Shown here: piece by piece, positions 32,354-60,559 of the stretch
Layout of the letters: the number at the start of each line of letters is the position of its first letter
Numbering within the stretch: position 1 is the stretch's first letter
Assembly (NCBI GenBank): GCA_947628695.1
Contig: CANRAV010000007.1
Coordinates: forward strand, 19,549-83,548
DNA: 64,000 nucleotides
DNA from: an uncultured Clostridia bacterium
Lineage (GTDB): Bacteria > Bacillota > Clostridia > Oscillospirales > CAG-382
Reading direction: 5' to 3'
Made by a program: the position numbers and the translations under genes
The notes under the pieces: model-generated
Databases searched by the model: none
Seen by the model: the letters and a program-made list of their open reading frames with translations, nothing else
Told to the model about the DNA's origin: nothing

Positions 32354-33472
32354 TTGATCGAGTTTAGGCCAAAGCTTAGGGATGGCCGCTTAGTTGTCAG
32401 AGTAAAGCTGTCCCCTTATGATGTGATCAACGGCACCGAGCTTGATATTATCTCCGGCTCTTACATCCGAGGCTTTTTGAAAGCAAGGCAAATCAAACGA
32501 AATGTGATTGAATATACAGGCCCGGTTGGAATTCCATTGGTCAGCCGTATGAAGAAACCCATTTCTCAATATGACTTTTTCTTTATCATGGAGCAGATTG
32601 TTGACGCAGCGCAAAAACTGCAGCGTTCCAACCTTCTTCCCGGGAAAGTGACTTGGGATATTCGCAATGTTTATATCAATGAGGCAACCAAAGAACTGCA
32701 GTTTATATACGTGCCGATTACATCGGCTCAGATAAATTCAAATATCATAGCATTTATAGAGTCTATAGTTTATGCAGCGATTCCGTTGCCGAATCAGAAT
32801 CCGGATTATATTTCACAGTTTTTGTATTTCATTAATTCGCTGCCAAGATTCAATGCGGATGCAATCGAGAAATATATTGCCAAGGTTGATAGAAAAGTTG
32901 TAAACACAATCAAACAGCATGCCTCCGTTTCAAGTGGATTTATGACCGACAAGCCAAAAGATTATTATGCGCATCTTGACGAGAAAAAGGGAGAGGGCAA
33001 TGATAATGAACCGGCGGATTATATTGACGATGATGCACCGACGGATCTTCTTGATGAAGAAAAAACAGGCCTTCTCGACGAAGATGCGCCAACAGGGCAT
33101 CTTGATGAAGGAGAAGAAACAGGATTGCTGAGTGATGAAGAGGGGACAGCTCTTCTTGATGAAAGCGGAACAGATATTCAATACCCCACGCTTTGCCGTG
33201 TTTTAACCGGGGAAACAATTGTTATCAACAAGCCGGTTTTCCGCATTGGAAAAGAACACAGCTATGTTGACTTTTTTGTCAGCAACAATAATGCAGTCAG
33301 CAGAAGCCACGCAGATATCATAACCAGAGGACAGAGATATTTCGTTATTGATCTGAACTCGAAGAACAGAACCTTCATTAACAATCAAGCACTTCCCGTA
33401 CAGCAAGAAGTGGAAATCTTTAACGGAGATCGATTAAAATTGGCGAACGAAGAGTTTGTGTTCAGTATATAG
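32354..33472 (+). CDS. FHA-domain protein with an N-terminal ~200-aa domain, an acidic T-x-L-L repeat linker and a C-terminal FHA
   Basis: The C-terminal FHA is FRIGKE...VSRSHADI...DLNSKNRTFINN. The linker has 5 repeats of the (E/P)TxLLDE type. TTG at 32354 lies 9 nt after GGAGGTG; the ORF track starts at GTG 32348. Confidence 0.8.
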   Translation: MIEFRPKLRDGRLVVRVKLSPYDVINGTELDIISGSYIRGFLKARQIKRNVIEYTGPVGIPLVSRMKKPISQYDFFFIMEQIVDAAQKLQRSNLLPGKVTWDIRNVYINEATKELQFIYVPITSAQINSNIIAFIESIVYAAIPLPNQNPDYISQFLYFINSLPRFNADAIEKYIAKVDRKVVNTIKQHASVSSGFMTDKPKDYYAHLDEKKGEGNDNEPADYIDDDAPTDLLDEEKTGLLDEDAPTGHLDEGEETGLLSDEEGTALLDESGTDIQYPTLCRVLTGETIVINKPVFRIGKEHSYVDFFVSNNNAVSRSHADIITRGQRYFVIDLNSKNRTFINNQALPVQQEVEIFNGDRLKLANEEFVFSI

Positions 33473-33486
33473 AAGGGGACAGTCTT

Positions 33487-34146
33487 ATGAGCAAATTGTG
33501 CCGAAATTGTAATACGGTGTTGGACGACACGGATACATTCTGTTTTCACTGTGGGACGCCTGTGGACACTTCCAATGACGGGGAAACAAGCCTTTTGACA
33601 GATGATAATGAAGAAACGGGGCTCCTAAACAGCACCGATAAAGATACCTCTTTACTTGACGAGGAAACGAGGGAGTTGAACCCCGAGGATATGCCAAGAT
33701 ACACGCCGCAGTATGCTCCTTCGCAGCCGTCATTTGGTCAAAACACGCCTAATTCACCGCAGAGATTGAGCGAGAAGGATTTTTATGAAAAATTCGTCTC
33801 GAAAAAGATAAAAGGGTGGACTACGGCTATCGGCGTGCTTTCGCTTGTTTCAGGCGGAATTAATCTGCCGCTCTTATTTCTCGGCAATTTGCTTTCGATT
33901 ATAGACATTGCTTTTTATGTTTCAATGGGCATTTTGATATTAACAACAAAAAAATGGGGACTGCCGCTTGCGGTCACTATATACAGCGGGGTCTTTTCCG
34001 TTATCACCGTTGCGATCAGCGGTATTCCCAGTGGAATTGCAGTATTGATAGTTGGAATTTTCGCAACAATCTATCTTAAAAAAGCAAACGATGCATACAA
34101 ACTGTATTGCGAATCCGGGGTACTCCCCCAGAAGCCTGTTGAGTGA
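33487..34146 (+). CDS. Zinc-ribbon membrane protein with T-x-L-L repeats
   Basis: It has an N-terminal CRNC...CFHC ribbon, then ETSLL/ETGLL/DTSLL repeats, then 3-4 C-terminal TM helices. Confidence 0.7.
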   Translation: MSKLCRNCNTVLDDTDTFCFHCGTPVDTSNDGETSLLTDDNEETGLLNSTDKDTSLLDEETRELNPEDMPRYTPQYAPSQPSFGQNTPNSPQRLSEKDFYEKFVSKKIKGWTTAIGVLSLVSGGINLPLLFLGNLLSIIDIAFYVSMGILILTTKKWGLPLAVTIYSGVFSVITVAISGIPSGIAVLIVGIFATIYLKKANDAYKLYCESGVLPQKPVE

Positions 34147-34159
34147 GGAGGAGCAAAAG

Positions 34160-34921
34160 ATGCGGTTTTTAGCAACTGCGGACACCGACATCGGGATCAG
34201 TAAAGGCACAAATCAAGACAGCGTTTTAATAAAACATGCCGCATACGATGACGGCGAGACACTAATGGCCATCGTATGCGATGGGATGGGCGGACTCTCT
34301 AAAGGTGAGCTTGCCAGCGCAACCGTAATTCGGGCGTTTTCCAAGTGGTTTGAAGAAGACCTCCCTTATGAGCTCGATGATGTAAACATGGAGGTCATCG
34401 GCGGGAAATGGTCGCTGATGCTGAAGGATCTGAATGCAAAGATTGCTGAATACGGAAAGCAAATAAATGAAAGCTTAGGTACCACATTCTCCGGTATCCT
34501 TTTTGCCGGTGATCAATACGTTATTGTCCATGTAGGGGATTCACGCGTTTATCAAATTGGGTCTTCCATGCGTCAACTCACTACGGATCAAACCTTCATT
34601 GCCAGGGAAATCAGCCGTGGTACTATGACGCTGGAGCAGGCGAAAACAGACAAACGCCGCAATCTCCTTTTGCAATGTGTAGGTGCGTCTGAGGTTGTCA
34701 CTCCGCAGGTGTTGTGCGGAAAGGCGGAAAAAGGCGCATACATGCTCTGCTCGGACGGATTTCGCCATGAAATTAGCGATGAAGAAATGTATGAATCGCT
34801 CAACCCGATAAACTTAATGAACAAACAGGCGATGCATAATAATACGAAATATCTGATCGAGCAGGCAAAGTCGCGTAAAGAAAAGGATAACATCTCCGTT
34901 ATCCTGATCAAAGCGGAGTGA
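34160..34921 (+). CDS. PP2C-family Ser/Thr protein phosphatase
   Basis: It has TDIGISKGTNQDS, the CDGMGG metal-binding motif and a C-terminal DNISVILI. ATG at 34160 follows GAGGAGGAG. Confidence 0.88.
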   Translation: MRFLATADTDIGISKGTNQDSVLIKHAAYDDGETLMAIVCDGMGGLSKGELASATVIRAFSKWFEEDLPYELDDVNMEVIGGKWSLMLKDLNAKIAEYGKQINESLGTTFSGILFAGDQYVIVHVGDSRVYQIGSSMRQLTTDQTFIAREISRGTMTLEQAKTDKRRNLLLQCVGASEVVTPQVLCGKAEKGAYMLCSDGFRHEISDEEMYESLNPINLMNKQAMHNNTKYLIEQAKSRKEKDNISVILIKAE

Positions 34922-34932
34922 GGTAAGACGAC

Positions 34933-36657
34933 ATGACGGAAATCGGCACCGTAATTGACGGCAAGTATGAGATACTGAAAGAAATCGGCCGCGGCGGTAT
35001 GTCTATCGTCTATCTCGCCATGGATAAGCGGCTCAATAAGCAGTGGGCGGTTAAGGAAATACGCAAAAAGGGCAGCGGTAAGAATGACGAAGTTGTTGTC
35101 AACAGCCTGCTTGCGGAAGCCAACTTAATGAAGAGGCTGGATCATCCCGCTTTGCCGAGGATTGTCGATATTATTGATAATGGCGTAACGATCTATGTAG
35201 TCATGGACTACATAGAGGGCGAATCCCTCGATAAGATCCTTAACGAGTACGGTGCGCAGCCTGAAGAAACGGTCATTACTTGGGCAAAGCAGCTTTGTGA
35301 TGCGCTCTCCTATCTGCACTCACAAAAGCCACCGATTATTTATCGCGACATGAAGCCGGCCAACGTCATGCTCAAGCCGGAAGGCAATATTAAAATTATT
35401 GATTTCGGCATTGCACGTGAGTACAAGGAGCAAAACCTTGCCGATACCACGGTGCTTGGTACTAAGGGCTATGCACCTCCGGAACAGTACAGCGGTCAGA
35501 CAGATCCGCGTTCCGACATTTTCGCCCTTGGTATGACGATGCATCATCTGCTTACCGGAATTGATCCGAGGAACGGCGACGCCTACTCATCTGTTCGTCA
35601 GTGGAACCCGGAGCTTTCGGAAGGTATTGAGGCAATCATTGATAAATGCGTTCAGCCGGCGGCAGAAAACCGATACCAAAGCTGCGCAGATCTGCTGTAT
35701 GACCTTGAACATCCCGAATTGATTACCGGAGGGTTCAAGAAAAAGCAGAAAAGAAAACTGGGTGCCTTTATTACCGCAGCGGTTTTGAGCGCCTTGATGT
35801 TAATCTCCGGGCTTGTCTGCCGAGGGCTGGCTGCCATGATTAACACAAATAACTATGAGGCGTATATCGCATCCCAAAACAATATAGAAAACTATAAACT
35901 GGCTATCGAGCTGTATCCGAACGATCCGAGGGCATACGATAGGATTTTGGATACATTTGACAACAGCATCAACACAAGGTCGGATTCCGATGCGGAGAAG
36001 CTGCTTACATCGGAGGAGTTAAAGCAGTTTGAAGCACTTTACGACCCAAGCGATGACGCGAAGTACAGCAGCGATTATCAGGGCTTTTCGGAGCTCAACT
36101 ATCGCATCGGGAAAATGTGCTTTACCTATTACGACAGGACTCTTTCGCAGAACGAAAATTTCAGCGCGAGAATCAATAAGGCGTATATCTATCTGAATCA
36201 AAACCACACCTTTATTCAGAATTCACAGGTGGCGCAGTCATCCGGTAACATGCAGCTTTCCGAGTGCTACTTTCAAATTTGCGACTTCTATAAAAAGTAT
36301 ATCTTCAGCCAAACGGCGGACACGGCCTCTGCAGAGGATTTCGCAAGCTTTTTCGGTTCATTGGATGACTTGCTTGACGGTGTAGAGAGCAATTCATCCG
36401 CTACTGCCTATGATAAGCTGGAGCTGTACAACAACATATTCATGCTTCTGTATGACAGAAGAGCGGATATGGTTTCCGCAGGCGTCAGCCGGGACATTGT
36501 GCTGGAGCTGTTTGACAGGGTCTACAGCAGCGCTGAAGAAATTGATGCCTCCCAGCGGACACTGTGGACTGTCCTTAAGGCTGAAATGCAGGATAATTAC
36601 GCAACCTACAAGGCTGCGATTCAAAGGGCCTATACCAATGCGGAGGGAAGGGGTTAA
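34933..36657 (+). CDS. Hanks-type Ser/Thr protein kinase with one TM and a ~280-aa extracytoplasmic domain
   Basis: The kinase motifs are a G-loop (GRGGMSIVY), a catalytic Lys (WAVKEI), a catalytic loop (YRDMKPANVM), DFG, and GTKGYAPPE. The TM is at about aa 265-290. No PASTA repeats were recognised. Confidence 0.88.
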   Translation: MTEIGTVIDGKYEILKEIGRGGMSIVYLAMDKRLNKQWAVKEIRKKGSGKNDEVVVNSLLAEANLMKRLDHPALPRIVDIIDNGVTIYVVMDYIEGESLDKILNEYGAQPEETVITWAKQLCDALSYLHSQKPPIIYRDMKPANVMLKPEGNIKIIDFGIAREYKEQNLADTTVLGTKGYAPPEQYSGQTDPRSDIFALGMTMHHLLTGIDPRNGDAYSSVRQWNPELSEGIEAIIDKCVQPAAENRYQSCADLLYDLEHPELITGGFKKKQKRKLGAFITAAVLSALMLISGLVCRGLAAMINTNNYEAYIASQNNIENYKLAIELYPNDPRAYDRILDTFDNSINTRSDSDAEKLLTSEELKQFEALYDPSDDAKYSSDYQGFSELNYRIGKMCFTYYDRTLSQNENFSARINKAYIYLNQNHTFIQNSQVAQSSGNMQLSECYFQICDFYKKYIFSQTADTASAEDFASFFGSLDDLLDGVESNSSATAYDKLELYNNIFMLLYDRRADMVSAGVSRDIVLELFDRVYSSAEEIDASQRTLWTVLKAEMQDNYATYKAAIQRAYTNAEGRG

Positions 36658-36659
36658 TC

Positions 36660-37160
36660 ATGGCAGACGTATTATCAATTGTTTCGCTTGTCTCCTTCAT
36701 CATTGCAGGTATCAGCCTTGCCGTTGCAGTGTTCCTCTGGTTTAGCTTTAAAATCCCAACGGTTATCGGAGATCTGACCGGAAAAACAGCCAAAAAATCC
36801 ATTGCAAAGATGCGCAAAAGCAACGAGGCTTCCGGGAACAAATCTTACCGTCCAAGCGCAGCTAATGTGAATCGCGGCAAGATTACGGATTCCATCCCGG
36901 ATTCGGCAAAGCCGAATTCGCAGGCAGCCGCTTCCACTCCTTTTGATAAAGGTCAAACGGGAATCCTCGATGAAAACAAAGCATCCGGGAACTGTGCAGA
37001 GCCTACCGCAGCGCTTGATGACAGCGCAACCGAGCTTCTTTCGGGCAGTGAAGAAACCGAGCTGCTTCCACAGGAAGCGCAGGCAAAGCGCAGGGCTGCA
37101 ATTAAGAAATTGAGAATGCTTGATGAAGTCATTTATATCCACACCGATGAGGTGATTTAG
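36660..37160 (+). CDS. Single-pass membrane protein with a cytoplasmic T-x-[LI]-L repeat tail
   Basis: It has an N-terminal TM (IVSLVSFIIAGISLAVAVFLWF), then QTGIL, PTAAL, ATELL and ETELL motifs. It starts 3 nt after the kinase stop. Confidence 0.65.
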   Translation: MADVLSIVSLVSFIIAGISLAVAVFLWFSFKIPTVIGDLTGKTAKKSIAKMRKSNEASGNKSYRPSAANVNRGKITDSIPDSAKPNSQAAASTPFDKGQTGILDENKASGNCAEPTAALDDSATELLSGSEETELLPQEAQAKRRAAIKKLRMLDEVIYIHTDEVI

Positions 37161-37245: not shown

Positions 37246-37731
37246 ATGGGATATGGAGCGTATTTATCGATAAAACGGCGAAAGAAAATGAAATTTGCCT
37301 TTATTGGCTCGCTCTCTTTGATGTCGCTGTCAATTGCCTTCATGCCGATAGCCAGCGAGTACCGTGGAGACAGCATGCTGCCCACCATACTAACGGGAAC
37401 GGCATTTTGGGTGGGGTTAATAGGTACGGTATTGATTGCGATATGGATCAATCGACGCCGAAAGAAAAGCACGCGTTTCAATGAATTGTATCCAAACGCG
37501 AAACAGCTTGGCGTTGTCCGTTTTTTTCAGAACAAGCCGGCGACGGTTGTGGACATTGCAATGTTTGCGGCTCTTTTGGGTTTGATAATTACCAAATTGA
37601 CTGTAGATCGGATTATCATCCCATTTGTATTTTTAGCTTTATTTGTTTTTCTGTTTGGTATGCACTGTATGCTAAACGGAGTTTGCTATAAATATCTAAA
37701 CTATAGGACAGGGAGAGGTAAAGAATTATGA
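37246..37731 (+). CDS. Small polytopic membrane protein (about 4 TM)
   Basis: A hydrophobic ORF with a GAGGAA RBS. Its stop overlaps the start of the giant gene (ATGA). Confidence 0.6.
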   Translation: MGYGAYLSIKRRKKMKFAFIGSLSLMSLSIAFMPIASEYRGDSMLPTILTGTAFWVGLIGTVLIAIWINRRRKKSTRFNELYPNAKQLGVVRFFQNKPATVVDIAMFAALLGLIITKLTVDRIIIPFVFLALFVFLFGMHCMLNGVCYKYLNYRTGRGKEL

Positions 37732-40700
37732 GACACGGAAAAAACAATGCTTTAAATAGTGCGTTAGCTGTGTTGCTTTCAGTCATGATGGTGGTTGCAA
37801 TGCTGCCGACAGGCGTATTTACTGCCTTGGCAGCAACAGAAAACCATGAGGGTGTTTTCACATTCACTGTGACCGAGAAAGAGGAAGGCAACCCTGTTGT
37901 GGGCGCAGCAGTTCGTTTGTACAACGAAGAAGGCGAGGATTGGACGCAGGAGACGGGCGAAGACGGCGTTGCCGAATTTTCCGAGTTCACGGGCAAGGGA
38001 CTTGCCGGAACCATATCCGGGAATTTCAGTTATGAGGTTACTGCGGACGGATATGAAAAGGCTTCCGGTACCGTTGACGGAAGCGATGACCAATGGATCG
38101 GGAATATTGCCGTTGAACTGAATGCGCTGACTGTCGAGCAGAAGACGGTTACCGTTGTCGTATCCGGCGGAGAAGCAACAGTTGAGCTTGACGGCGAAGA
38201 AACAAATTCGAAGACAGTCAATGTCGGCGACTCTGTTAAAGTGAAGATTACTCCGGAAGCGGGCTCTTATATTAAGAACCTAACGGTAGGGGGAACAGAG
38301 GAAACCGTTGATCACGGCCAGCCGTTTGAAAAAGATATCAATATCGACGAGGATACCGATATCAATGTAACAATCCAAAAGGAATATACCGTTTCAATCG
38401 TCCGGAACGGAGAGGGCACTGTTACCGTCAGCAAGGCCGACGGTTCCACTGTGTCCGATCAGGCAAAAGTTGATGCCGGGGAAGTGCTTACGATCAATGT
38501 AGCGCCAAAAGATGACAGTTATCAAATTGACTCGGTGAAAATCAATTCCGATGAGATGCTGACTGACGACAACAAGACGTCATACAAAGGCACCGTCACG
38601 GTGAATGACGATGTGAAAATTGAGGTTGTCTTTGTTGCGGTGTTCAGCGTCACCGTGACGGTTGACGGCTCCGGGGATGCAAGCGTCATGCTCGACGGGG
38701 AGGTTATCGGTGGAGCCGGTGGATCTGTAACGGTCAAAACGGGAACGAAAATCGATGTGGAAGCGACGCCGCATGAACACTATCGGGTTATTGACGTTAT
38801 CGTTAACGGCGTTCCCAAAGAAGATGTATCCGGGAAAAATGACTCCGACTACAAAATCGAAGGGCTTGAGGTAAATCAGACTTATGAAATTACGGTTACC
38901 TTTGCCCTGAACGTATACACTGTTACGGCTGATGAAGCGAAGAACGGGACTGTAACGGTTGAAGAGCCTGCTCAGGTCGAATGGGGCAAGGATAAAAAGG
39001 TCTATGTATCTCCGGCAGACGGATATACGATCGATAAGATTACCGTTGATTCCGAACCTGTCGAAGCTGTCTCCGGTGATGACGGAGGATTCTATTTTAT
39101 CGTTGCAAACATTCAGTCCGATAAGAATGTAATAGTCACCTTCAAGGAAAAAGCAAAAGCAACGGACGCCGATTTTACAATAGACGAACGTAATATTTTG
39201 CGTTCGGAAGTGGGGGCCGACTCTGCGCTTTATGTCATAAAGCAAGACACCTCCGTTACCTTCTCCACAGATAAGGCGGGAATCAAACTCATTGATGACA
39301 AGGGGCTTGTAATAGGCGGAAGCGAGAACGAAAAGTCTGTCTCTGTTTCCGAAGCGAAAACTATTGATAAAATACAACTGTATTATAAGGCCGATGAAGA
39401 GCTATATGAGGATTGGCATGATGTGCAAACTGTGAAGAAGGAGGTTTTTGTTGACACAGAGGCTCCTACTGTACAGTTTGATGCTGTTAAACCGGATATG
39501 AACGCCAACGGATACCACCATACGGATATTGAGGTAACCGTAAAGGCCACGGATGCTCCGGAGAAAAAATATTCCGGTATTCAAAAGTTAGAATATTTAA
39601 TTAGCGACGACGGCAAGGATGGCTCTTGGAATACACTGTATGAGTATTCCGAGGACAGTGAAATTGAGAATGTCATTACAAGCACAGTCGACATTGATGC
39701 GACGGAGCATAATTCCCGTGATGTAATACTGAAAATCAAGGCGACAGACCTTGCGGGAAATACCAAAGAACTTCAAAAAGAATTCCACATCAACAGCACC
39801 GTTCCTTTAGTTAAGCTTGAACTGGACGGCGTATCGAACGTGAATGCCGAGACCGGATATTTCACCACAGATCGCGTGCTTACCATTACTATTACAGACC
39901 GCGACGATACTTTTGACAGGAACGCCGTTGCAGACGGGCTTAAAATTACCGCAGACGGAAACGCGGTCGAAGTGAAACCCGAGGATATTGATTGGGGCGG
40001 CAATGATCAAGAGCATACCGGGACGTATGTGTTCTCCAAAGACGCTCACTACAAATGGAGCTTTTCCTACACAAATAAAGCAGGTGTGGAAAATAAAGAT
40101 ATTACATGCGCGAATCCCGAAGATGCAAGCTTTTACGATTTTACAATCGACCATGAAGGCCCCCGGGAATTGAGTATTGAATACAGCCCAAGTATCACTG
40201 ATGTTTCGTTCGGTGACCTGAGCTATGGGTTCTACAATTCCGATGTGACAGTAACAATAAAAGCAATCGATAAAACTGCGGGAATTAAAGAGTTTGAATA
40301 CTTTTGCAAGGAACAGGGAAGCGGCGAGACAATTTTTCACAAAACCGTCAATGCCAATGATCCGAATTTCAAGGTAAACGGTGATGAAACAAGCTATACA
40401 TTCACTATTCCTGCTGAATTCCGCGGTTCGGTAAGCTTCTCTGCGACCGATAAGGCAGGGCAGACAAATTCCTATGACGATCCCAAAATCATTGTTGTTG
40501 ATAACGTTGCGCCAAAAGTAACTGTTAGCTATGATAACAATGAAGTCGAAAACGAAAAATACTACAAAGGCAAGAGAACTGCTACAATTGAAATTGATGA
40601 AGCGAATTTCTTCGGCACCGATGAATACGGACAGGCCGATTTCAATGATTTGATTTCAGGCAAGGAGAATACTTACCTTGAAATAACCGACGGCTTCCAT

Positions 40701-46112: not shown

Positions 46113-47024
46113 ATGAACACTTTAATTGAAAAGGAAGTCGTAAGCGAAATGACCTGCGGTTCTAATTTTGCCTATGTGCTGACCGATAACGCTTCCTTCC
46201 TTACGACGGAATACAAGGTCTTACAGAGCAAAACAAGCAATTGCTTTGTGCGCTGTATGAAGATGCTTTATAACGGAAAAATTCAGCTTTATTACCTGAC
46301 GGGAACGTATAAGCCGTTATCTTCTCTATTTTCAACCTTGGATGCGGAAAGGTTTATCACTATTACCGCCAATCTCCTATCTGATATTATCGAGGTAAAG
46401 AGCAACGGGTTTCTGTCCTGCCAAAATATAGATATTTCGTTTGAGCACATTTTCGTTGACCCGGCGACATATAAGGTGAGCCTGATTTATTTGCCGTTGA
46501 GCCGGCACATGTTTGACGATACTGCGTATTTCGATAACGAGCTGCGTACAAGCCTAATTAAGTTGATTTCCGGGCTGAGCAACTTATCCTCGCCTAAAAC
46601 GATCCGGCTATCATCCGATTTGTCAAACGGTGCATTGTCGCTGGAAGATTTGTATAACAGGTTGAAGGGCAACCGTCCTGACCCCCGACTTAATGTCGAA
46701 TCCCGCCCTGCGAGTTCTCCTGCTTCAAATGTTCGGATTGTTTCTCTTAACGCTCCTGCACGTGTGGAGATCAACATCACAAAGGACGAGTTTATACTTG
46801 GGAAAAAGGCCGATAAGGTGGACGGCGTGCTTTCCTTTAATGACAAAATCAGCCGCGTGCATTGCAAAATCAACCGAAACGGCGACCGGTTCACTATAAC
46901 GGATCTACATAGTGCCAACGGAACCTATGTAAATCATGTTCGCCTTCAGCCTGATGTGGCACAGCCCATAAAAAACGGTGATTTAATCCGTTTGGCCAAT
47001 AGTGATTTTCAGATTGTTATGTGA
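46113..47024 (+). CDS. Second FHA-domain protein, a paralogue-like partner of 32354-33472
   Basis: The C-terminal FHA is FILGKK...ISRVHCKI...DLHSANGTYVN. The N-terminal domain shares the pattern NI(D/Y)h...(L/V)x(F/L)IY(L/V)P with the first FHA protein. Confidence 0.8.
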   Translation: MNTLIEKEVVSEMTCGSNFAYVLTDNASFLTTEYKVLQSKTSNCFVRCMKMLYNGKIQLYYLTGTYKPLSSLFSTLDAERFITITANLLSDIIEVKSNGFLSCQNIDISFEHIFVDPATYKVSLIYLPLSRHMFDDTAYFDNELRTSLIKLISGLSNLSSPKTIRLSSDLSNGALSLEDLYNRLKGNRPDPRLNVESRPASSPASNVRIVSLNAPARVEINITKDEFILGKKADKVDGVLSFNDKISRVHCKINRNGDRFTITDLHSANGTYVNHVRLQPDVAQPIKNGDLIRLANSDFQIVM

Positions 47025-48105: not shown

Positions 48106-48360
48106 ATGGCAAAAGAAACGGCAATTGTTATATTTAATATTCTCAAGCGGAATGTTTCTGTGGATTTAGAAATCCCGTTAGATATTACTGCGAATGAGTT
48201 GGTTATCGCACTTAACACTGCATACAGACTGGGCATTGATACAAGTGACATAAAAAACTGCTATCTGAAAGCAGAAAATCCTATTATTTTACTCCGTGGA
48301 AACAAAACCTTGGCTGAGTTCGGGCTGAGAAACGGAAGCAGTATCAATTATACAGAATAG
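48106..48360 (+). CDS. yukD: YukD/EsaB-like ubiquitin-fold T7SS protein
   Basis: 84 aa with the pattern VDLEIPLDITANELVIAL ... LRGNKTLAEFGLRNGSSI, typical of YukD/EsaB. It lies immediately upstream of essC. Confidence 0.75.
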   Translation: MAKETAIVIFNILKRNVSVDLEIPLDITANELVIALNTAYRLGIDTSDIKNCYLKAENPIILLRGNKTLAEFGLRNGSSINYTE

Positions 48361-48370
48361 GAGAATTACC

Positions 48371-52941: not shown

Positions 52942-53364
52942 ATGCTAAAAACAGAGATAGAAAGTGAAATTAGCAGGCTGCAAAAACAGCTGCAGGGCTA
53001 TCGTTCAAAAAAGAAAAAGGCTGAAAGTGAACAGCAAGAGATGGACACAGTCATATCCAAAATACGGCAGAAAACCGCGGAAATCGAAGGCGGTTTGCAA
53101 GAGACCCTCAAAACTATTGAAATACGCCTTAGCAAGTTAAACCCTAAAAGCAAGTTCAAAGTCAAATATTTGGAAAAAGTAAAGGGGTTCCTTCAAAACT
53201 CCAGTTCATCTTCTGCGGTGGAGAACACTCGTGAAGCAGAAAGAAAAGCAAAGAAAAAACATCTTGAGTTAGAGGATACAATTTCTGGCTACAACAGCAA
53301 AATCCGCAGTTTGGAACAAGAAATTGAAAAGCTAAATAATCAGCTCAAGCAGCTGGGAGTGTAA
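52942..53364 (+). CDS. ~140-aa coiled-coil protein (YwqH/DUF5082-like LXG accessory protein)
   Basis: It is an all-helical heptad-rich sequence. Its position and size match the first gene of ywqH-ywqI-ywqJ-type LXG operons. Confidence 0.55.
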   Translation: MLKTEIESEISRLQKQLQGYRSKKKKAESEQQEMDTVISKIRQKTAEIEGGLQETLKTIEIRLSKLNPKSKFKVKYLEKVKGFLQNSSSSSAVENTREAERKAKKKHLELEDTISGYNSKIRSLEQEIEKLNNQLKQLGV

Positions 53365-53369
53365 TCGAT

Positions 53370-53663
53370 ATGGCTAGTAAAGAAATTCAAATAACAGAAT
53401 ATGAATTAGAGAATTGTAATGGCAATCTTACAAAGCTCTCCTCCATCTGGACTTTGACTCCACAGGTTTCTTCGTGCATGGTAGCAAAAAGCAAAGGAAA
53501 ATCAGCTGATGGTATAAAAGACAGCCTTGACTTAACAAAACAACTGTCAAAATCCTTACAAGCCCTCTTGGATAATTCTATAAGCTTTTTCGCATCCATG
53601 GGAATTGCTTTTCAAGAATCGGATGAGGCTGCGGCACAACATATTGATACCATAACAAAGTAA
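53370..53663 (+). CDS. Small helical T7SS targeting factor (Lap1 / TIGR04197-like)
   Basis: 97 aa and helical, with a C-terminal FQESD (FxxxD) motif. It lies immediately upstream of the LXG gene. Confidence 0.55.
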   Translation: MASKEIQITEYELENCNGNLTKLSSIWTLTPQVSSCMVAKSKGKSADGIKDSLDLTKQLSKSLQALLDNSISFFASMGIAFQESDEAAAQHIDTITK

Positions 53664-53687
53664 CCAAACTACGGAGGTAAACTAAAA

Positions 53688-55556
53688 TTGTACGGATATA
53701 ATTTGATTGTGGATGATGACGAGTTGAATTTAGCTGGAAAGTGTTTTAAGTCTTTTTCCGACACTTTGGAATCAGTTTTTGATCAGTATAAGCTAATCTT
53801 AGACAATGTCAGTACAAACGCGGTTCCCTACGGCGAGGTTCATGACGCGCTCGTCCTTTATTCTGATTATGTTGTCAAGGTTCAAAAAATATCAGATCAG
53901 ATTGGAGACAAATTTTCTAAACTGATAAGCAATTTTATTTCCGAAATTGAGAATGCAGATGACTACCTATACGACACAGGCATCTCAAACATGACGAGGG
54001 ATTTTTCTGATGATGAGTATGAGCACCTTCGTAGTTGTTTAAAAGACCCATGGTGTTCGCTTACAGATTCCATCGGCGATTGGTTTTATAGCAAAGCAAT
54101 TAAAATCGTTGAATTCTTCAAATGGGATAGCGTTAAAGCGTATTTACAAAGCTGTCATCGTCTTTTACTTGATTATAACGATGAAATTGCTCAGGGTCTG
54201 AAAATTCTCTTTGAGTGTGTATACGCTGTAGACAAAAAGTATGGCACCAGCATCGCAGGTGGAGTCAGTAACGACGATAACTATACAGGCCATTTTGCGT
54301 ATGTTGTACTTACGTTGTGCGATTTGAGAAATATGCTCGACGAAATGACATTCATAATAGATCCCATCAACGGTTCATTTACTGCGAAGGTTATTGAGGC
54401 GCGTTTGGGAAACGCATATAAGGAACTCCTTAAAGATTTTGAGAATGCAATTGCAATCCCAGAAGTTGGATCAAAACCGACAATAGAAGAAATCTCTAAT
54501 TTTGCTTCGCAGCCTTGGGGCAATCTATATTTTAGTAATTTTTTCCAAGCTTCCACTAAGTTTGTTTATGATATGGGTGGGTGGGAAGCCTTTCAGATGA
54601 TCGTTTTCAATATGTTCGATATTTCTAAAACCGTCTTATTCGAAGAAAGTAACTATGAGGACTATTTGGCTAAAAAACAGTTGCTTTCTGTCTTGGAAGA
54701 CATGACGAATGAATACAAGTATTCGGAAAGCGACGAGCAGGAAGCCGTTGACGATTGCAAGACATTTCTTAAATATGTGAAGAAATTTGGAAAGAAAATA
54801 TACAAGTACATGAACGAGCATACGCTTGATAACGGAAAGCTTATTCTTGATGGGAGAACGATTAATGCACGTCAATATAGAGAGTTTCTTGAAAGTTTGG
54901 GTGGTGCTGAAACGATATTGAAGTGCGGTGATGATTCTATTGAGTATATTAGCAGGTTGTTTACTGACTATTCTAAAGGTCTGGAAATACTGGATTCTTT
55001 TGAAAATAACTACACAGGCAATGAAAAAATTTTGAGTAGCGTCAGCAATGTCAGAAGGCTATATAACAAAGAATTTTGTGCCTTGGTTGAAGAAGGCCTA
55101 AAGATAGTTATTGATAATGGATTGGATGTTGCTTTGAAAAAATTGGGCGATGCTGTCCCGGTCATTGGTGTAGTTAATGCAATTGATGAGGGACTTGGGA
55201 CAGTTGGAAAAATAACCGGATTAGGTAGCGATGCAAAAAGTATGATTGATGCGCTTGCATACTTCAATCTTCAAACTTCAAGTGAAACAGCATATAAGAA
55301 TGCTTTGGAGAAGGTTCAAAATGCCGATCCGAGCAGCGAGGGCTATGATGCTTTAGTTGAGGATCTTAATAATTGCTTTGAATTGAATAAAAAGAATACG
55401 ATCGAAATGTTTAAAGCGATGGCAACGGCTTCAAACGGCACGAAAAAAGCGTATTATAAGTATTGCGCAAAGCAGGCCGAAAACCTTACCATGAGAGATA
55501 CCGCTTGTCCAGATATTCTCTCTTATGACGAGTTTGTTGCCTTGGAGACCGCATAA
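53688..55556 (+). CDS. LXG-domain T7SS effector with an uncharacterised helical C-terminal region
   Basis: TTG start lies 9 nt after GGAGGT. The N-terminal helical domain has an L-A-G (LxG) motif at ELNLAGK. It is 622 aa and no known toxin domain was recognised. Confidence 0.65.
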   Translation: MYGYNLIVDDDELNLAGKCFKSFSDTLESVFDQYKLILDNVSTNAVPYGEVHDALVLYSDYVVKVQKISDQIGDKFSKLISNFISEIENADDYLYDTGISNMTRDFSDDEYEHLRSCLKDPWCSLTDSIGDWFYSKAIKIVEFFKWDSVKAYLQSCHRLLLDYNDEIAQGLKILFECVYAVDKKYGTSIAGGVSNDDNYTGHFAYVVLTLCDLRNMLDEMTFIIDPINGSFTAKVIEARLGNAYKELLKDFENAIAIPEVGSKPTIEEISNFASQPWGNLYFSNFFQASTKFVYDMGGWEAFQMIVFNMFDISKTVLFEESNYEDYLAKKQLLSVLEDMTNEYKYSESDEQEAVDDCKTFLKYVKKFGKKIYKYMNEHTLDNGKLILDGRTINARQYREFLESLGGAETILKCGDDSIEYISRLFTDYSKGLEILDSFENNYTGNEKILSSVSNVRRLYNKEFCALVEEGLKIVIDNGLDVALKKLGDAVPVIGVVNAIDEGLGTVGKITGLGSDAKSMIDALAYFNLQTSSETAYKNALEKVQNADPSSEGYDALVEDLNNCFELNKKNTIEMFKAMATASNGTKKAYYKYCAKQAENLTMRDTACPDILSYDEFVALETA

Positions 55557-56145: not shown

Positions 56146-56244
56146 TCAAATCGAAAACCTTGAGCAAATGACGATGAGAAGTTATAGCCCATATATATGA
56201 GGCTTATCTAGGATATTAAAATAGCAGAACGGAGGGTGATTTAT

Positions 56245-56697
56245 ATGAGCGTCACTTCTTTAGAAAGTCAAGTGCGATCATATGAGCAGAAAATAACTAC
56301 TGCTGAGTCGCAAATAAGAAAATGTGAGAGGAATTATGAGTCGCTACGGACATTCAAGGGTGTAGTCGAACGGTCCCAAGAAGACTTCAGTTCCGTAAAC
56401 AGAAAAAAACAAGGTATTTTGGCGGAGGTTGATGCTGTAAAAAAGGACAGCCTTACAGCACAAAGATATTCCGCAGGCATGAGTAAGGTGCTTAGCGGTA
56501 TCGGCTCCAAAATTGTAGCAATCGCCTATGCAGGATTTCTGTATCTCATCAAAAATAAGTTAAACAGCTATGTGAATGCTGTTTCTTCCTATGAAAATCA
56601 GATAGCGAACTATAACCGAAACATAACTAACCTGAACAAGCAAATTGAAACCGAAAAGGCGGAAGAACTTGCAAAGGCGGAAGGAGGACAAGCATGA
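56245..56697 (+). CDS. Coiled-coil protein, counterpart of 52942-53364 for a second effector module
   Basis: GGAGGG RBS (56231-36) lies 8 nt before ATG 56245. It has helical heptads and a central hydrophobic segment (IVAIAYAGFLYLI). Confidence 0.55.
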   Translation: MSVTSLESQVRSYEQKITTAESQIRKCERNYESLRTFKGVVERSQEDFSSVNRKKQGILAEVDAVKKDSLTAQRYSAGMSKVLSGIGSKIVAIAYAGFLYLIKNKLNSYVNAVSSYENQIANYNRNITNLNKQIETEKAEELAKAEGGQA

Positions 56698-57026
56698 CTA
56701 AAGATATTATTTATAATGAGAATGAGCTGTCAATTGCGGCAAACAGCATCGTTACTTATGCTGACTTCCTTACACGCTGCATAGCCGACTATACTTCTAT
56801 TCTGAAAGATATTCAGGCCAAAGGAATAAAAGACAACATGATTACATCTAAGCTTTCAGAGTTAACATCCTCTTTGGCACCGTATGCAACTGCCATCTAC
56901 GACGATGGAAAAGAAATATCATCTAATGTCAACAAGAGTATTTCGGATGTGGCTACGGCGGATAATTTCCAATTCCCTGGTGATGTTACATCGACAATTG
57001 CTTCTTTGCTCGCCAAATTCTTATAA
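56694..57026 (+). CDS. Stand-alone LXG-like N-terminal domain protein (110 aa)
   Basis: It aligns with the first ~95 aa of the LXG effector (NELSIAA vs DELNLAG; DYTSILKDI vs QYKLILDNV; VATADNFQF vs IENADDYLY). Its ATG overlaps the previous stop. Confidence 0.5.
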   Translation: MTKDIIYNENELSIAANSIVTYADFLTRCIADYTSILKDIQAKGIKDNMITSKLSELTSSLAPYATAIYDDGKEISSNVNKSISDVATADNFQFPGDVTSTIASLLAKFL

Positions 57027-57038
57027 GGAGGGATTGCT

Positions 57039-57323
57039 TTGTCTACTCAAATTACTGTTGATCTAAAAGAACTACAGCTTGCAGAAAGCAGGTTGTCAAC
57101 GCTACAGAAAAGTACAGCGAATAGAAAACTGACAATTAATATATCTCAATCAAGGGGCTCGGTTGCCGACGAACTTCGTAATGCCGCAACTCAATTAAAT
57201 GAAATTGGTGTGCAACTTGCGTTACTTATAAATAAGACAGAAACCGCTGTGAAAAATGCCTGGGTTTCCTTCGAGAATGCGGATAGCGAATTGGCTAAGC
57301 ATTTTGACATTACGGAGGAGTAA
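57039..57323 (+). CDS. Small helical T7SS targeting factor (Lap1 / TIGR04197-like), second copy
   Basis: 94 aa and helical, with a C-terminal FENAD (FxxxD) motif. It is paralogous in layout to 53370-53663. Confidence 0.55.
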   Translation: MSTQITVDLKELQLAESRLSTLQKSTANRKLTINISQSRGSVADELRNAATQLNEIGVQLALLINKTETAVKNAWVSFENADSELAKHFDITEE

Positions 57324-57325
57324 AA

Positions 57326-58123
57326 ATGAAGAAGAATCGTCAAAGGCTACTTTTACTTATTCTTACGATAATCATCACGATAGGAGTGTGTGGATGCGAT
57401 ATGAATAATAACTCTACCGCCAGAAATGAATCCGGAAACAACACAAGCAATGTGTCAGAAAATGTCGAACTAAACAACAGGCAGCTACAAATTCTTGAAG
57501 CCCAGGGATTGCCTCAAAATTTCAGGGAACTTTCGTCTTCTCAAAAGAAAGCAATCGTATCTATTGAGGAATTGTTATCGAGTGCCGAATCGAAATATGG
57601 CATGGATTTTTGTTATGCTGGCTATGTTGAAGCAAGTACCTTGGAATCTGAAAAAGTAATTGCGTACCCTGCTGGCGGAACCGAGTCTACTGACAGTTTT
57701 TTAATTTTAAGATCCTCAGATGGTACCATCACCGATGAATATATGAATGTCGCTTTAAGGGGAGAATATTCTGAACTGATTTTGATGCTTGCAAAAGATG
57801 CTTTATCTTCTGAAAATACAAAAGTCTTTGTAGAGGTTACAAATACAGCATTGACCTCTATTCCAGATGATATTGATCAGCTTGTTGGCAATGTTGAAGG
57901 AACTTCTGTGATCTTTGTTGACGGATCCGACGTTTCAGAAGAGCAGTTTGAATTTTTTGTTTCTTCTATTAAGCAAGCCCTTGAGGAAAAACAACTGTAC
58001 GGCACAGCGCAAATCATTCTTTTGAATGCAGATACCATTAAGTATTTAACTCAATATAATTACACTGATTATCTTGATCCTGAGTGCTATACAGACAGAG
58101 AAAGTATAAGTATAAAGAAATAA
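57326..58123 (+). CDS. Lipoprotein, candidate immunity protein for the adjacent lipase
   Basis: Its signal peptide ends in a lipobox (IGVCGC). It lies immediately upstream of the lipase-like effector. Confidence 0.6.
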   Translation: MKKNRQRLLLLILTIIITIGVCGCDMNNNSTARNESGNNTSNVSENVELNNRQLQILEAQGLPQNFRELSSSQKKAIVSIEELLSSAESKYGMDFCYAGYVEASTLESEKVIAYPAGGTESTDSFLILRSSDGTITDEYMNVALRGEYSELILMLAKDALSSENTKVFVEVTNTALTSIPDDIDQLVGNVEGTSVIFVDGSDVSEEQFEFFVSSIKQALEEKQLYGTAQIILLNADTIKYLTQYNYTDYLDPECYTDRESISIKK

Positions 58124-58150
58124 CATCCATTTAAGAAAGGGGCGAACTGC

Positions 58151-59854
58151 ATGACTTTAACCGATAATGAATTATGTATGATCGAGCAACTATGCTACTT
58201 AAATAAAGATGTGGCCGAGGCCGCAGGAATTAGCGGCTTCACTGGTGTTAAAGCTGAAGCCGGTCATAAGGGTATGTCCATTGCTGAGATATTAGAGCCG
58301 TTTGATGAGAACGCTTTGAACAAACTTGAAGCACTTGGGGATAAAGAATTGGATGGAGCTTGTGCCAGCGGTAAAGAATGGGCAGAGATTATTCGCTATT
58401 TGAAGTCCAGCGAACGAATTAGTAGTCTGGCACTATCCGAGACAATGGTGAATTCAAATGGAACCACACTGGCTCTTTGTTTTACTGAATCGGCAAATTC
58501 AGATAGTGCTATCGTCGCTTTCAAGGGAACGTCAGGCGGTGATGAGTGGATTGATAATGTTGAGGGGTTGAACACCTCTGATACACAATGTCAAAAAGAA
58601 GCTTTAGATTTCATTGAGAGCCTGAGATTCTCAGATATAACAGTAACTGGTCACTCAAAGGGCGGCAACAAGGCTATGTATGTTGCCATAACCTCTGACA
58701 AGGTTACTCGTTGCGTAGCCTATGATGGGTAAGGATTCTCGCAGCAGTTCATCGATAAATACTGGGCGGAAATTCAAGCACGCGGCAATAACATTACAAA
58801 CTACTCCCTCTCTACCGATTATGTGCATGCGCTTATGTTTCCTGTTCCTAATTCAAATCAGGTGTACTGCAAAGGGTATGGCGTAGATAATATCAAACAA
58901 CACCATAGTCCAGATTCCTTTTTTGTAACAGATGAAAACGGAAACTTAATCCTAGACGAGAACGGAAATCCCATTGTGATTTCAATCTCCGAAGATGAGT
59001 CCATTATGATGCTCCACGATTTCACCACCTTTGTTATAAATAATGCAGATGAAAATGACAAGGTAATCATTGTTGACTATGTATCGCAGCTTTTAGCAAT
59101 GGCTTTTGGCGGCGGAGACATGTCAACTGACGAGATGATTGATTTCCTTCTTTCAGATCCGGAAACACTCGCACTAATAGTCGCTTACTTGATTAAATAC
59201 ATGGAGGTTAGTGATCTATCAGCGGAGGATATTGATAAATTACTTAAAACATTAGGCTTGGATTCTTTGGATGAGATGTTTACGGTTAATGTCAAGGGAG
59301 TTGATATTGTCGGTTTATCTTGCCTGCTAGACTATATAAAAAAACAGTTAACAGACAATGATGATGACTGGATCATCGCAAATGTATTGTTACCTCTTCT
59401 GAAAAAATGGAAATTCGATGATCTTGACATTGATATTACTGATTTCTGGAATAAGGTTAATAGCAAAGTTAAGAAAATAAACACCTCTGGAGGAACTTCA
59501 AATGCAAAAGCAAAAACAGGTTCTATTAGAGATTTCTCACTAACTGTTTACAATGCTCTTATGGGTGCAATCAGGAAAATTGAGAATATGTCCTTTTCTT
59601 CGGTATCATCGTGGGCAAGTTATTCATCAGAGGAGTGGTACTCTTCTCTATTTGTGTCAACAGCTATAAAAGGTTTTTCCGCCTATTTTAATAAGTTGAC
59701 TCAGACAAACTCCAAATGTAAGACCAAAATTGAGACGATATTTTCTAATGTATCCCAGGCGGATACAAACGGTGGAAACAGGATAAAGCAGACTACATCT
59801 GCGCTTCAAACGTTAAAGGTAAACTTGAATGATTGTGCCAATGGCATTGGCTAA
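58151..59854 (+). pseudogene. Alpha/beta-hydrolase (DUF2974/Mbeg1-like lipase) effector with a C-terminal helical domain, interrupted by an in-frame TAA at 58730-58732
   Basis: It has a nucleophile-elbow motif (GHSKGGNKA). ORFs 58151-58732 and 58823-59854 share one frame, and the sequence reads YDG-stop-GFSQQF through a single TAA. The C-terminal ~300 aa are helical. Confidence 0.65.
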
Positions 59855-59913
59855 TAACATTGCTCCAATCCGGTATAACCGGACGGAGATATATTTTATG
59901 TGAGGATCTCAAA

Positions 59914-60206
59914 ATGGCAAACTAAATCAAAATCACTCCGGATCGGATGCACGAGAGAGCAAACCAGTATCGCACAGAGTCAGACACTGTTAACGGTGTT
60001 ATCGGTAAAATGTACTCATCGCTTCATCAGCTGAAGGGCAAATGTGAAGTCTTAGCGAGCAAATCCTAAGCGATCTGCTATTAGGAACTGAAATCCGGCT
60101 TCATGAACGCTGAAAAAACGTCTGTAAAATCGCAGCTGCTTTTGACTTTATTGTAAAGAGTGTTAAGGGTACCGATCTCAATATAGTGAACCGGTTCATA
60201 GGTTAA
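59914..60206 (+). pseudogene. Decayed tandem copy of esxA (WXG100)
   Basis: It aligns codon-for-codon with 60266-60559. It carries at least 5 stop codons, one 1-nt deletion, a lost RBS and WEG changed to CE. Confidence 0.8.
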
Positions 60207-60265
60207 TTGAAGTATATATTCGGTTCATCCGATTATATAAAAAATTCGGAAAGGAGGACATATCA

Positions 60266-60559
60266 ATGGCAAATCAGATTAGAATTACCCCGGACCAGAT
60301 GCGTGAGAGAGCAAATCAGTATCGCGCCGAGGCAGACACCGTAAACGGCGTAATCGGCAAGATGGACTCACTGCTTCAGCAACTGCAGGGCGAATGGGAA
60401 GGCTCCGCGAGCGAATCATATGCGGCTCGCTATCAGGAACTGAAGCCCGGATTCATGAAAGCTGAAGAACTAATCCGCGAAATTGCAGCTGCTCTTGACT
60501 CTACTGCGAAGATCGTTGAGGAGACTGATACCGACATCGCCAATCAGTTCAGGGGCTAA
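60266..60559 (+). CDS. esxA: WXG100 family type VII secretion substrate EsxA
   Basis: 97 aa with a strong RBS (AAAGGAGG). It has a W-E-G motif in GEWEGSASESY and the helix-turn-helix layout of ESAT-6-like proteins. Confidence 0.9.
   Translation: MANQIRITPDQMRERANQYRAEADTVNGVIGKMDSLLQQLQGEWEGSASESYAARYQELKPGFMKAEELIREIAAALDSTAKIVEETDTDIANQFRG

Follow-up and report, generated by a model that had tools for sequence, protein, structure and literature searches.

We analysed a locus in a 64,000-nucleotide stretch of contig CANRAV010000007.1 from an uncultured Clostridia bacterium (assembly GCA_947628695.1); the whole stretch is called the window in the following. Between 32.3 and 60.6 kb of the window, the listing and translation of open reading frames (ORFs) gives about 20 co-oriented genes (Table 1), which an earlier note, made from the sequence alone, had read as a non-canonical type VII secretion system (T7SS) resembling T7SSb, the type of Staphylococcus aureus (Ess) and Bacillus subtilis (Yuk). 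The parts list of that note was borne out, in that EssC, YukD and EsxA as well as all accessory families are supported by hidden Markov model (HMM) matches in Pfam and NCBIfam. All proteins of the locus were scanned with Pfam, and eleven core proteins, from J1 to EssC except for the giant protein I, also with NCBIfam; I and the proteins downstream of EssC were scanned with Pfam only. The search for EssA, EssB/YukC and EsaA/YueB that the note had called for was run in the same way, and none of these models matched any locus protein in Pfam, or any of the eleven proteins in NCBIfam. Genes of the type VI secretion system (T6SS; TssA-M) are not present in the locus, and the TagH/FHA models match the FHA domains only, far below the cut-off.

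Table 1. Genes and other features of the locus and its flanks, with positions in the window.
Feature	Positions	Strand	Evidence
J2, DUF6382-FHA protein	46113..47024	+	DUF6382 30.0 bits (threshold 26.7); FHA 62.4 bits
V, TadZ-like ATPase, TsfV-like	47040..48095	+	AAA_31 47.8 bits; MinD/ParA type
B, YukD/EsaB ubiquitin-like protein	48106..48360	+	PF08817 35.9 bits (cut-off 27)
C, EssC ATPase	48371..52882	+	TIGR03928 1151.8 bits (cut-off 778.4)
A, WXG100 protein EsxA	60266..60559	+	PF06013 72.4 bits
J1, FHA protein with DUF6382-type N-domain	32348..33472	+	PF00498 FHA 51.9 bits; DUF6382 24.1 bits
K, zinc-ribbon membrane protein, TsxK-like	33487..34146	+	PF13240 (Zn_Ribbon_1) 27.4 bits
F, PP2C/PPM Ser/Thr phosphatase, TsxF-like	34157..34921	+	PF13672 (PP2C_2) 41.6 bits
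D, Hanks-type Ser/Thr kinase, TsxD-like	34933..36657	+	PF00069 Pkinase 170.6 bits
H, small membrane protein, TsxH-like	36660..37160	+	Transmembrane segment at 7-25; no Pfam/NCBIfam family
X, small protein with about four transmembrane segments	37246..37731	+	Transmembrane scan; no Pfam/NCBIfam family
I, giant Ig-repeat surface protein (2,746 residues), TsxI-like	37728..45968	+	Big_3_4, Big_13, Big_3_2 and Big_3_3 matches
Effector cassette 1	52942..55556	+	622-residue candidate substrate of no known family, preceded by small helical partner-like proteins at 52942-53364 and 53370-53663
Two short ORFs repeating part of the 622-residue protein	55603-55842, 55888-56145	+	Shared DYSKGLEILD (translations)
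Effector cassette 2	56236..59854	+	Three small helical proteins, lipoprotein (57326-58123), 'reverse' Mbeg1-like lipase (58151-59854)
Tyrosine recombinase/integrase, directly 5' of the locus	30991..32124	+	PF00589 92.1 bits; PF14659
Sel1-repeat protein	26897-27520		
HepT-like RNase toxin	27883-28203		
Zinc-ribbon RNase_T exonuclease	29171-30523		

The core of the system consists of J2, V, B, C and A, and the accessory module upstream of it of J1, K, F, D, H, I and X. J2 is a soluble protein with a DUF6382 domain (residues 1-190), a short linker and an FHA domain with a conserved phospho-threonine pocket; like J1, it has no transmembrane segment or outer domain in a transmembrane scan. V lies between J2 and B and joins an atypical receiver-like N-domain to a ParA/MinD-type ATPase. 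Its proposed assignment as a TadZ/CpaE-like ATPase agrees with the AAA_31 match and with its best solved relative, PDB entry 3fkq (E 9.6e-11 over residues 5-274, that is, both domains), which is titled an NtrC-like two-domain protein in the database and which we take to be TadZ of Eubacterium rectale. A "signature" lysine (K-G-G-x-x-K-[ST]) is typical of ParA/MinD proteins. In V, the Walker A region reads S-A-C-G-G-T-G-K-T-T, with S131, A132, G134, G135, G137, K138, T139 and T140 invariant in 20 homologues. Because the signature lysine appears to be absent, V may differ from MinD in its ATP-sandwich dimerisation.

EssC has an N-terminal FHA-like region, two transmembrane segments and three stretches of the FtsK_SpoIIIE type. 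Two of the three P-loops that had been claimed for it are canonical Walker A motifs (GTTGSGKS at 688 and GSSQSGKT at 1018), but the third is degenerate (GSGKN). The two FHA domains read at its N-terminus are not called by Pfam in the window protein; they are called in close homologues, and the N-terminus can be aligned with the FHA region of TsfC, the EssC protein of T7SSf. In a motif alignment the second FHA domain lacks the phospho-threonine residues GR, SxxH and NG in the window protein and in all relatives examined. TseC and TsjC, from T7SSe and T7SSj, keep this motif, whereas the window EssC and its relatives show G-S, no SxxH and S-N-Y-G. EsxA is the single PF06013 match in the locus; the other small helical proteins score far below the threshold.

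In the upstream module, J1 probably starts at a TTG codon at 32354. Its DUF6382 score is below the Pfam threshold of 26.7; a profile-profile comparison with the J2 family (hhalign probability 96.9%, E 2e-10) supports the suggestion that the two FHA proteins share a homologous N-terminal domain. K has an N-terminal zinc ribbon, then a linker with three E-T-x-L-L motifs (T34, T44 and T54) and about four transmembrane segments. F scores 159.6 bits against NF033484 (Stp1-like), which is under the equivalog cut-off, and the catalytic DGMGG is present in 23 of 23 homologues. In the kinase D, a single transmembrane segment (278-296) links the kinase domain to an outer domain, which has about 280 residues and matches no family. 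As far as can be read from its motifs it is active, as had been proposed: the G-loop, the lysine of WAVK, YRDMKPAN, DFG and the threonines of the activation loop (TTVLGT) are all intact, and among the full-length homologues YRD[ML]KPxN occurs in 18 of 24 and DFG in 21 of 24. For the outer domain no relative was found in the PDB. H has an N-terminal membrane anchor and a cytoplasmic tail that is predicted to be disordered and contains three T-x-L-L motifs (T100, T124 and T133). About 21 of 56 related loci have X, placed between H and I. Finally, the N-terminus of I is signal-like; many Ig-like domains follow, and the protein ends in an anchor with a lysine tail (transmembrane segments at 13-31 and 2717-2735). 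Homologues of 1,300-2,985 residues stand at the same position in relatives.

The spacing of the genes had been described as very tight. Most gaps are indeed between -4 and 27 nt, but five are larger (85, 144, 59, 679 and 411 nt). Scans for promoters and terminators in the locus gave counts at chance level, favouring neither one nor two operons.

To the knowledge of the earlier note, such wiring is not a described feature of T7SSb; systems of this kind are, however, already in the literature. The subtypes T7SSc to T7SSj were defined by Garrett, Higginson and Palmer (2024, PMC11217815) from the phylogeny of EssC and from gene neighbourhoods, with the same types of parts: a membrane Ser/Thr kinase (TsxD), a PPM phosphatase (TsxF), a DUF6382-FHA protein (TsxJ), a zinc-ribbon membrane protein (TsxK), a small protein with a single transmembrane segment and an unstructured cytoplasmic region (TsxH), a giant Ig-like protein (TsxI) and, in T7SSf only, a TadZ-like ATPase (TsfV). 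The same authors proposed phospho-regulation for these subtypes and compared it with the T6SS, so the analogy drawn in the note is not new either. According to their lists T7SSf has A, B, C, F, J (with two transmembrane helices) and V, with "no kinase genetically associated", T7SSe has A1, A2, B, C, D, F, H, I, J and K, and T7SSj has A, B, C, D, F, I, J and K (PMC11217815). In the window we find A, B, C, D, F, H, I, K and V, together with X and two paralogues of J. No subtype in that paper combines V with a kinase or a giant protein, and X is not among the listed parts.

From this comparison we concluded that the core is probably of the T7SSf type and the upstream module of the T7SSe/j type. 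The core shares with T7SSf the J-V-B-C…A arrangement with a TadZ-like V, the DUF6382-FHA protein and the PPM phosphatase, and V, with its receiver domain and its ParA/MinD-type ATPase, is flanked by T7SS genes here as well; the label "T7SSb-like" was thus imprecise. On the other hand, T7SSf has neither a linked kinase nor a giant Ig protein, whereas both are present and widely conserved here, and D, H, X, I and K all come in addition to its parts. TsfJ has two transmembrane helices and J1 and J2 have none, even if relatives such as P0376 have a transmembrane hairpin. Furthermore, T7SSf was reported from a few Clostridium species, while the clade of the window is widespread among the Lachnospiraceae, Oscillospiraceae and Acutalibacteraceae of the gut, and some Bacilli have related cores.

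The upstream module J1-K-F-D-H-I corresponds one for one to T7SSe/j parts in domain architecture and predicted topology, as compared from their descriptions. V and a second J appear in the list of neither T7SSe nor T7SSj. In addition, the core of T7SSe includes two WXG100 proteins that are not identical (A1 and A2) where we recognise one, and H is missing from T7SSj. K has about four transmembrane segments compared to the one helix of the described TseK. TsjD has a C-terminal tetratricopeptide-repeat (TPR) domain. For D there was no TPR HMM match, and in the PDB its residues 300-574 matched designed helical-repeat proteins at chance level (E 0.4-0.9).

To place EssC we used five reference sequences, the N-terminal halves of which were transcribed from Fig. 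S2 of Garrett et al.; they are partial and may contain transcription errors. The window EssC matches TsfC best of the five, with 183 bits and 24% identity over 633 residues including the FHA region, compared to 104 bits for EssC of S. aureus (partial), 103 bits for TsjC and 92 bits for TseC. A database search with the transcribed 643-residue TsfC fragment gave no match.

We then asked how widely this arrangement is conserved. A scan with the V alignment, using one genome per GTDB species, gave 146 relatives, and 80 loci that contain V were kept; the counts for the upstream module are based on 56 loci with at least 9 kb of upstream flank. J2 adjoins V in 76 of the 80 loci (ORF maps), and B and C come after V in every locus whose contig extends far enough. 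Upstream of the core we found the giant protein in 46 and the kinase in 42 of the 56 loci, and at least one of the two in 49. The full order J1-F-D-H-(X)-I-J2-V-B-C is seen in four loci (L033, L078, L082 and L086), and in Pseudoflavonifractor capillosus and Clostridium nigeriense the genes run kinase, H, giant protein, J, V, B, C. As hosts we found Lachnospiraceae, Oscillospiraceae, Acutalibacteraceae, three Clostridium species and a few Bacilli (Rossellomorea, Ornithinibacillus and Niallia). Carriers that can be cultivated include Clostridium nigeriense Marseille-P2414, Pseudoflavonifractor capillosus, Clostridium folliculivorans D1-1 and Pseudobutyrivibrio sp. 49. EssC alone has more than 1,400 relatives at E ≤ 1e-50; the best 120 are all at least 67% identical, and metagenomes are the source of most. 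The neighbourhood survey supports the proposal that the accessory genes belong with the secretion genes, as dozens of genomes, drawn from several families, repeat this gene order.

The seven exceptions among the 56 loci fall into three groups. The first comprises Bacilli loci with a full upstream flank (L035, L043 and L055), where neither a kinase nor a giant protein lies within 10 kb upstream. In the second (L056 and L066) no kinase is in view, and L066 has a T7SSf-like order, J-F-J2-V-B-C. In the third (L076 and L077) the kinase has moved downstream of V. There are also minimal relatives, namely L087, with the order J(transmembrane hairpin)-F-V-C-A, and L088 and L089, with J-V-B-C-A beside housekeeping genes. 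The EssC protein of L087 is 48% identical to that of the window and matches TsfC better (248 bits). Because V is about 60% identical between Clostridia and Bacilli, its sequence suggests horizontal transfer.

The position of esxA at the distal end of the locus, which the note had stressed, is true of this locus but not a family trait: it is variable, and in many relatives esxA follows directly after essC. Here it is distal because the effector cassettes appear to have been inserted between essC and esxA.

Some further observations concern these relatives. The Bacilli loci of Rossellomorea, Ornithinibacillus and Niallia (L035, L043, L053 and L055) have a J-V-B-C core. The accessory module is evolutionarily plastic and comes in several variants (L044, L067, L081; L026, L075, L085; L076, L077): two kinase-like proteins, one of them of 1,385-1,595 residues, replacing the giant Ig protein; a kinase of about 960 residues followed by a protein of 1,285-1,432 residues too diverged to match I; and a kinase relocated between V and B. 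A second clade of EssC, 43-48% identical to that of the window, occurs in Clostridia and Bacilli (L016, 15853-20723; L035, 16200-20726; and about 15 other loci). Its essC is followed by a conserved block of genes for a WXG100-like protein, a protein of about 140 residues, a membrane protein of about 480 residues, a protein of about 195 residues with two transmembrane segments, a 441-residue TPR protein (with a weak match to the EccA1 N-domain), another WXG100-like protein and EsxA. We considered whether this block hides EssA, EssB or EsaA and rejected this, as it holds WXG100-like, TPR and unknown membrane proteins. The block may contain further parts of the machine that are listed for no subtype.

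The absence of EssA, EssB and EsaA, clear at the level of HMM matches, does not hold for EssB at the level of the fold. We modelled J2 with AlphaFold2 from 83 diverse homologues and compared it with 350,542 PDB chains using Foldseek. The model of the whole protein has two domains and a mean predicted local distance difference test score (pLDDT) of 93.6. Since its list of matches was swamped by FHA domains, the N-domain was modelled alone (pLDDT 95.7, predicted template modelling score 0.90). Its top match was the N-domain of TraF from the type IV secretion system of pIP501 (8cba, E 9e-6), followed by YukC/EssB of B. subtilis (6z0f, chains A and B, E 5e-5, query-normalised TM-score 0.62-0.63), chain C of the T7b core unit (9qks_C, E 1.5e-4) and EssB of Geobacillus (4ano, E 1.7e-4). 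Ordinary kinases rank below all of these. The TraF N-domain itself was published as a structural homologue of EssB/YukC (PMC13037476). The supplement of Garrett et al. gives only generic "protein kinase domain" matches for TsfJ (PMC11217815). As HRD and DFG are missing from the DUF6382 family, we regard the domain as a pseudokinase. Judging from the models, EssB is replaced here by a soluble, EssB/YukC-like pseudokinase domain that is fused to an FHA domain. In B. subtilis the YukC pseudokinase binds the second FHA domain of YukB, and YukD stabilises this arrangement (PMC12637312); by analogy we infer that J binds the N-terminus of EssC.

A second feature concerns the threonine motifs. The acidic motif [DE]-[EA]-T-x-L-L-x-[DE] occurs four times in the linker of J1, three times in the linker of K and three times in the tail of H, all in regions that are predicted to be cytoplasmic and disordered. 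In shuffle tests P was 0.00035 for J1, 0.02 for K and 0.00065 for H. Homologues of H contain 105 copies compared to 13.7±3.7 in shuffled sequences, and homologues of J1 38 compared to 6.9±2.6; positional analogues of H too diverged for BLAST contain seven. The motif position strongly prefers threonine, with a Thr:Ser ratio of 105:16 in the homologues of H and 38:4 in those of J1 compared to 469:563 in background proteins. J2-type proteins seldom carry the T-x-L-L motif.

FHA domains are specific for phospho-threonine and select the residue at position +3, and this residue is Leu in the motif. The FHA domains of J1 and J2 both keep the binding pocket, the first position being Lys or Arg; in the J2 family the pocket reads G-[K/R], [S/G]-R-x-H, S-x-N-G-T and N, with the H and the S each conserved in 83 of 83 sequences. 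Because the motif is specific for threonine, has Leu at +3 and occurs together with intact FHA pockets, its threonines are likely the best candidates for both kinase targets and FHA docking sites.

Taken together, we consider it probable, though by some distance not certain, that the locus is a complete non-canonical T7SS, in which a T7SSf-type core is fused to an upstream T7SSe/j-type module and X, and which works by a phospho-switch. In this mechanism the kinase D would sense an envelope signal through its outer domain and phosphorylate the E-T-x-L-L threonines of three proteins, in the linker of J1 and in the cytoplasmic regions of K and H. The phosphorylated sites would serve as docking points for the FHA domains of J1 and J2, and this docking would carry the pseudokinase domains to the membrane, where these could bind the N-terminal FHA-like domains of EssC, which are themselves unable to read phospho-threonine. 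This contact between J and EssC would mirror the binding of YukC to YukB with the help of YukD in B. subtilis. Docking would assemble or activate EssC, and the phosphatase F would reverse the switch. V might help to place or assemble the machine, I might span the wall as a conduit or contact sensor, and EsxA and the two effector cassettes would be the cargo.

Several points weigh against this interpretation. Every protein-protein contact in the mechanism rests on analogy, and what V, X and I do is guessed from where they lie and how they fold. The structural matches to EssB are modest (root mean square deviation about 6 Å, 11-16% identity); the DUF6382 profile finds no EssB among PDB sequences and gives chance-level matches only, so the link between DUF6382 and EssB is a structural one. 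The first residue of the FHA pocket is Lys and not Arg in the window protein and in 57% of the family. Some relatives without a kinase, such as L056, keep the T-x-L-L repeats in J1, and it is therefore possible that a kinase is encoded elsewhere or that the motif has another reader. One effector, the lipase, appears to be a pseudogene, and the locus may thus not be active in its host organism. Finally, the literature that we searched holds no experimental work on T7SSe, T7SSf or T7SSj, and on T7SS of gut Clostridia nothing beyond Garrett et al. (2024).

Potentially, the locus could simply be a member of one of the named subtypes, T7SSf, T7SSe or T7SSj, and the apparent combination could result from a limited window of flanking genes or from the sampling of RefSeq in the published classification. 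We regard this as rather unlikely, while taking it seriously. Every type of part except X has a named counterpart, TsfC is the closest of the transcribed EssC references, and L087 combines the exact T7SSf architecture with an EssC close to that of the window; besides, Garrett et al. were themselves less sure of the core sets of T7SSf to T7SSj (PMC11217815). On the other hand, the paper explicitly links no kinase to T7SSf and places V in T7SSf only, and D and I only in T7SSd, e and j. Identity to TsfC is only 24%, and TseC and TsjC differ from the window EssC in the phospho-threonine motif. The accessible part of the Garrett supplements contains none of the names of gut Clostridia that we searched for.

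Another explanation would be that the block of kinase, phosphatase, FHA protein and giant protein is an independent operon for envelope signalling or adhesion which is a mere neighbour, uncoupled from secretion. The 144-nt gap separates the two blocks, the minimal relatives could in principle work without the upstream one, and in the seven exceptional loci it is missing within 10 kb upstream. We still find this very unlikely, since the block keeps the same place and orientation in 49 of 56 loci from several families, at EssC identities of 39-72%, contains J1, a paralogue of the core protein J2, and is interleaved with the core in some loci (L072, L074 and L076/77).

The least probable alternative, to which we give hardly any weight, is a canonical T7SSb with diverged parts, in which J would stand for EssB, I for EsaA and H or X for EssA: the DUF6382 fold, the match of EssC to the Firmicutes EssC equivalog model, its FHA region without phospho-threonine residues and the EsaA-like role that Garrett et al. 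suggested for TsdI (PMC11217815) would fit, but J1 and J2 lack both a transmembrane segment and an outer domain and have, unlike EssB, an FHA domain, I is an Ig-repeat protein that bears a signal peptide and is anchored at its C-terminus, and not a polytopic EsaA/YueB, the models of the three proteins are unmatched, and the kinase, the phosphatase and the TadZ-like ATPase have no counterpart in T7SSb.

The locus does share some features with T7SSb beyond EssC, YukD and EsxA, namely effector cassettes with small helical partners and a "reverse" lipase, and the EssB/YukC-like pseudokinase fold in J1 and J2. It differs in having no EssA or EsaA by HMM and no membrane-spanning EssB, the pseudokinase being soluble and fused to FHA, and in the addition of an apparently active kinase, a phosphatase, a TadZ-like ATPase and a giant Ig protein.

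The system that we propose follows the logic of threonine-phosphorylation control of the T6SS (PpkA/PppA/Fha1 in Pseudomonas, TssL-Fha in Agrobacterium): in both, the secretion machine is encoded together with a Hanks kinase in the membrane, a PP2C phosphatase and a reader with an FHA domain. For Agrobacterium, Garrett et al. cite that the FHA protein is recruited by a membrane component that is phosphorylated (PMC11217815). The secretion machines are unrelated, which makes this an analogy and not a homology; here the candidate sites are multi-copy E-T-x-L-L motifs on several proteins, and the FHA domain is fused to a pseudokinase. A further likeness is to GarA/OdhI of Actinobacteria. The FHA fold of J2 matches these proteins with target-normalised TM-scores of 0.74-0.89 (Foldseek), and J1 has candidate phospho-threonines and an FHA domain in one polypeptide. 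In GarA, the FHA domain binds a phospho-threonine of the same polypeptide, and maybe J1 binds and inhibits itself in a similar way, although partners and biology are different.

What would this mean? In the literature that we searched, three things go beyond the 2024 paper: the combination of an f-type core with an e/j-type module, which is apparently unnamed and widespread, the EssB-like fold of DUF6382 and the E-T-x-L-L repeats; a T7SS with these types of parts and the idea of phospho-regulation were already known (PMC11217815). A broader claim would be that we see an unnamed and very widespread subtype of gut Clostridia, in which EssB has been split into a soluble pseudokinase-FHA adaptor (J) and small membrane "landing pads" (H and K) with multi-copy E-T-x-L-L sites, the assembly of EssC is gated by a sensor kinase and a phosphatase, and the minimal relatives represent the ungated state. 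We put this forward tentatively, as quite possible but not as the expected outcome. If true, the minimal relatives, with a transmembrane hairpin in J itself or without a kinase, would form a natural series for the way in which a secretion machine acquired phospho-control.

Type VII systems deliver toxins between Gram-positive bacteria, and to our knowledge almost all mechanistic work on them concerns T7SSa and T7SSb. The clade described here is abundant in gut metagenomes and could be one of the main ways in which gut commensals antagonise each other. The hypothesis of the switch is specific, as it names a kinase, a phosphatase, threonines and FHA readers, and the EssB-like fold of DUF6382 ties the new subtypes to the solved YukB-YukC-YukD core. 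That modules of different subtypes (f and e/j) can co-occur also bears on how the scheme from c to j is drawn.

The genes between essC and esxA form two effector cassettes. The proteins of cassette 1 have only weak coiled-coil, YwqH-like and DUF5344 matches, and the same trio occurs in L027, L044 and L066. The 622-residue candidate and its homologues match no LXG model and we dropped the label "LXG" that the note had given; in Pfam, no LXG or toxin domain was found in the candidate and three homologues. The two short ORFs downstream of it are probably, going by their translations, the remnants of a second, degraded copy of this effector, and resemble what recombination between cassettes would leave.

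In cassette 2, the lipoprotein is a candidate immunity protein. The "reverse" lipase has an Mbeg1-like N-domain (28.8 bits) and a helical C-domain, and such lipases were noted at T7SSe and T7SSg loci (PMC11217815). After residue 193 the lipase gene is broken by a single TAA in frame (around 58730-58732, …AYDG*GFSQQF…; tblastn reads through in one frame). Intact homologues of 565-572 residues occur with the same five-gene order in L030 and L031, and L001, a second assembly of the same contig, has the same split. The lipase is either a recent pseudogene or the result of a sequencing error.

The genes of the first 26 kb of the window are ordinary chromosomal genes, with a GC content of about 0.54 (1-26 kb). 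A low-GC stretch begins near 26 kb, with about 0.44-0.46 at 26000-32124 and 0.38-0.49 across the locus. Together with the integrase, the Sel1-repeat protein, the HepT-like toxin, the exonuclease and a methyltransferase gene, the part from 26000 to 32124 suggests a genomic island. A scan of the window found no tRNA gene, and a search of plasmids with the V protein gave no match and thus no evidence for carriage on plasmids. The low GC, the integrase in the flank and the similarity of V between Clostridia and Bacilli suggest horizontal spread.

Two other genes of the window may be mentioned. In its chromosomal part, at 17819-20047, there is an ORF of 742 residues with no Pfam family at E ≤ 1e-5. 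Directly 3' of esxA, at 60836-62827, lies a gene for a 663-residue protein without a signal peptide, in which a microbial PARG-like (poly-ADP-ribose glycohydrolase) domain is fused to a GDSL/SGNH hydrolase.

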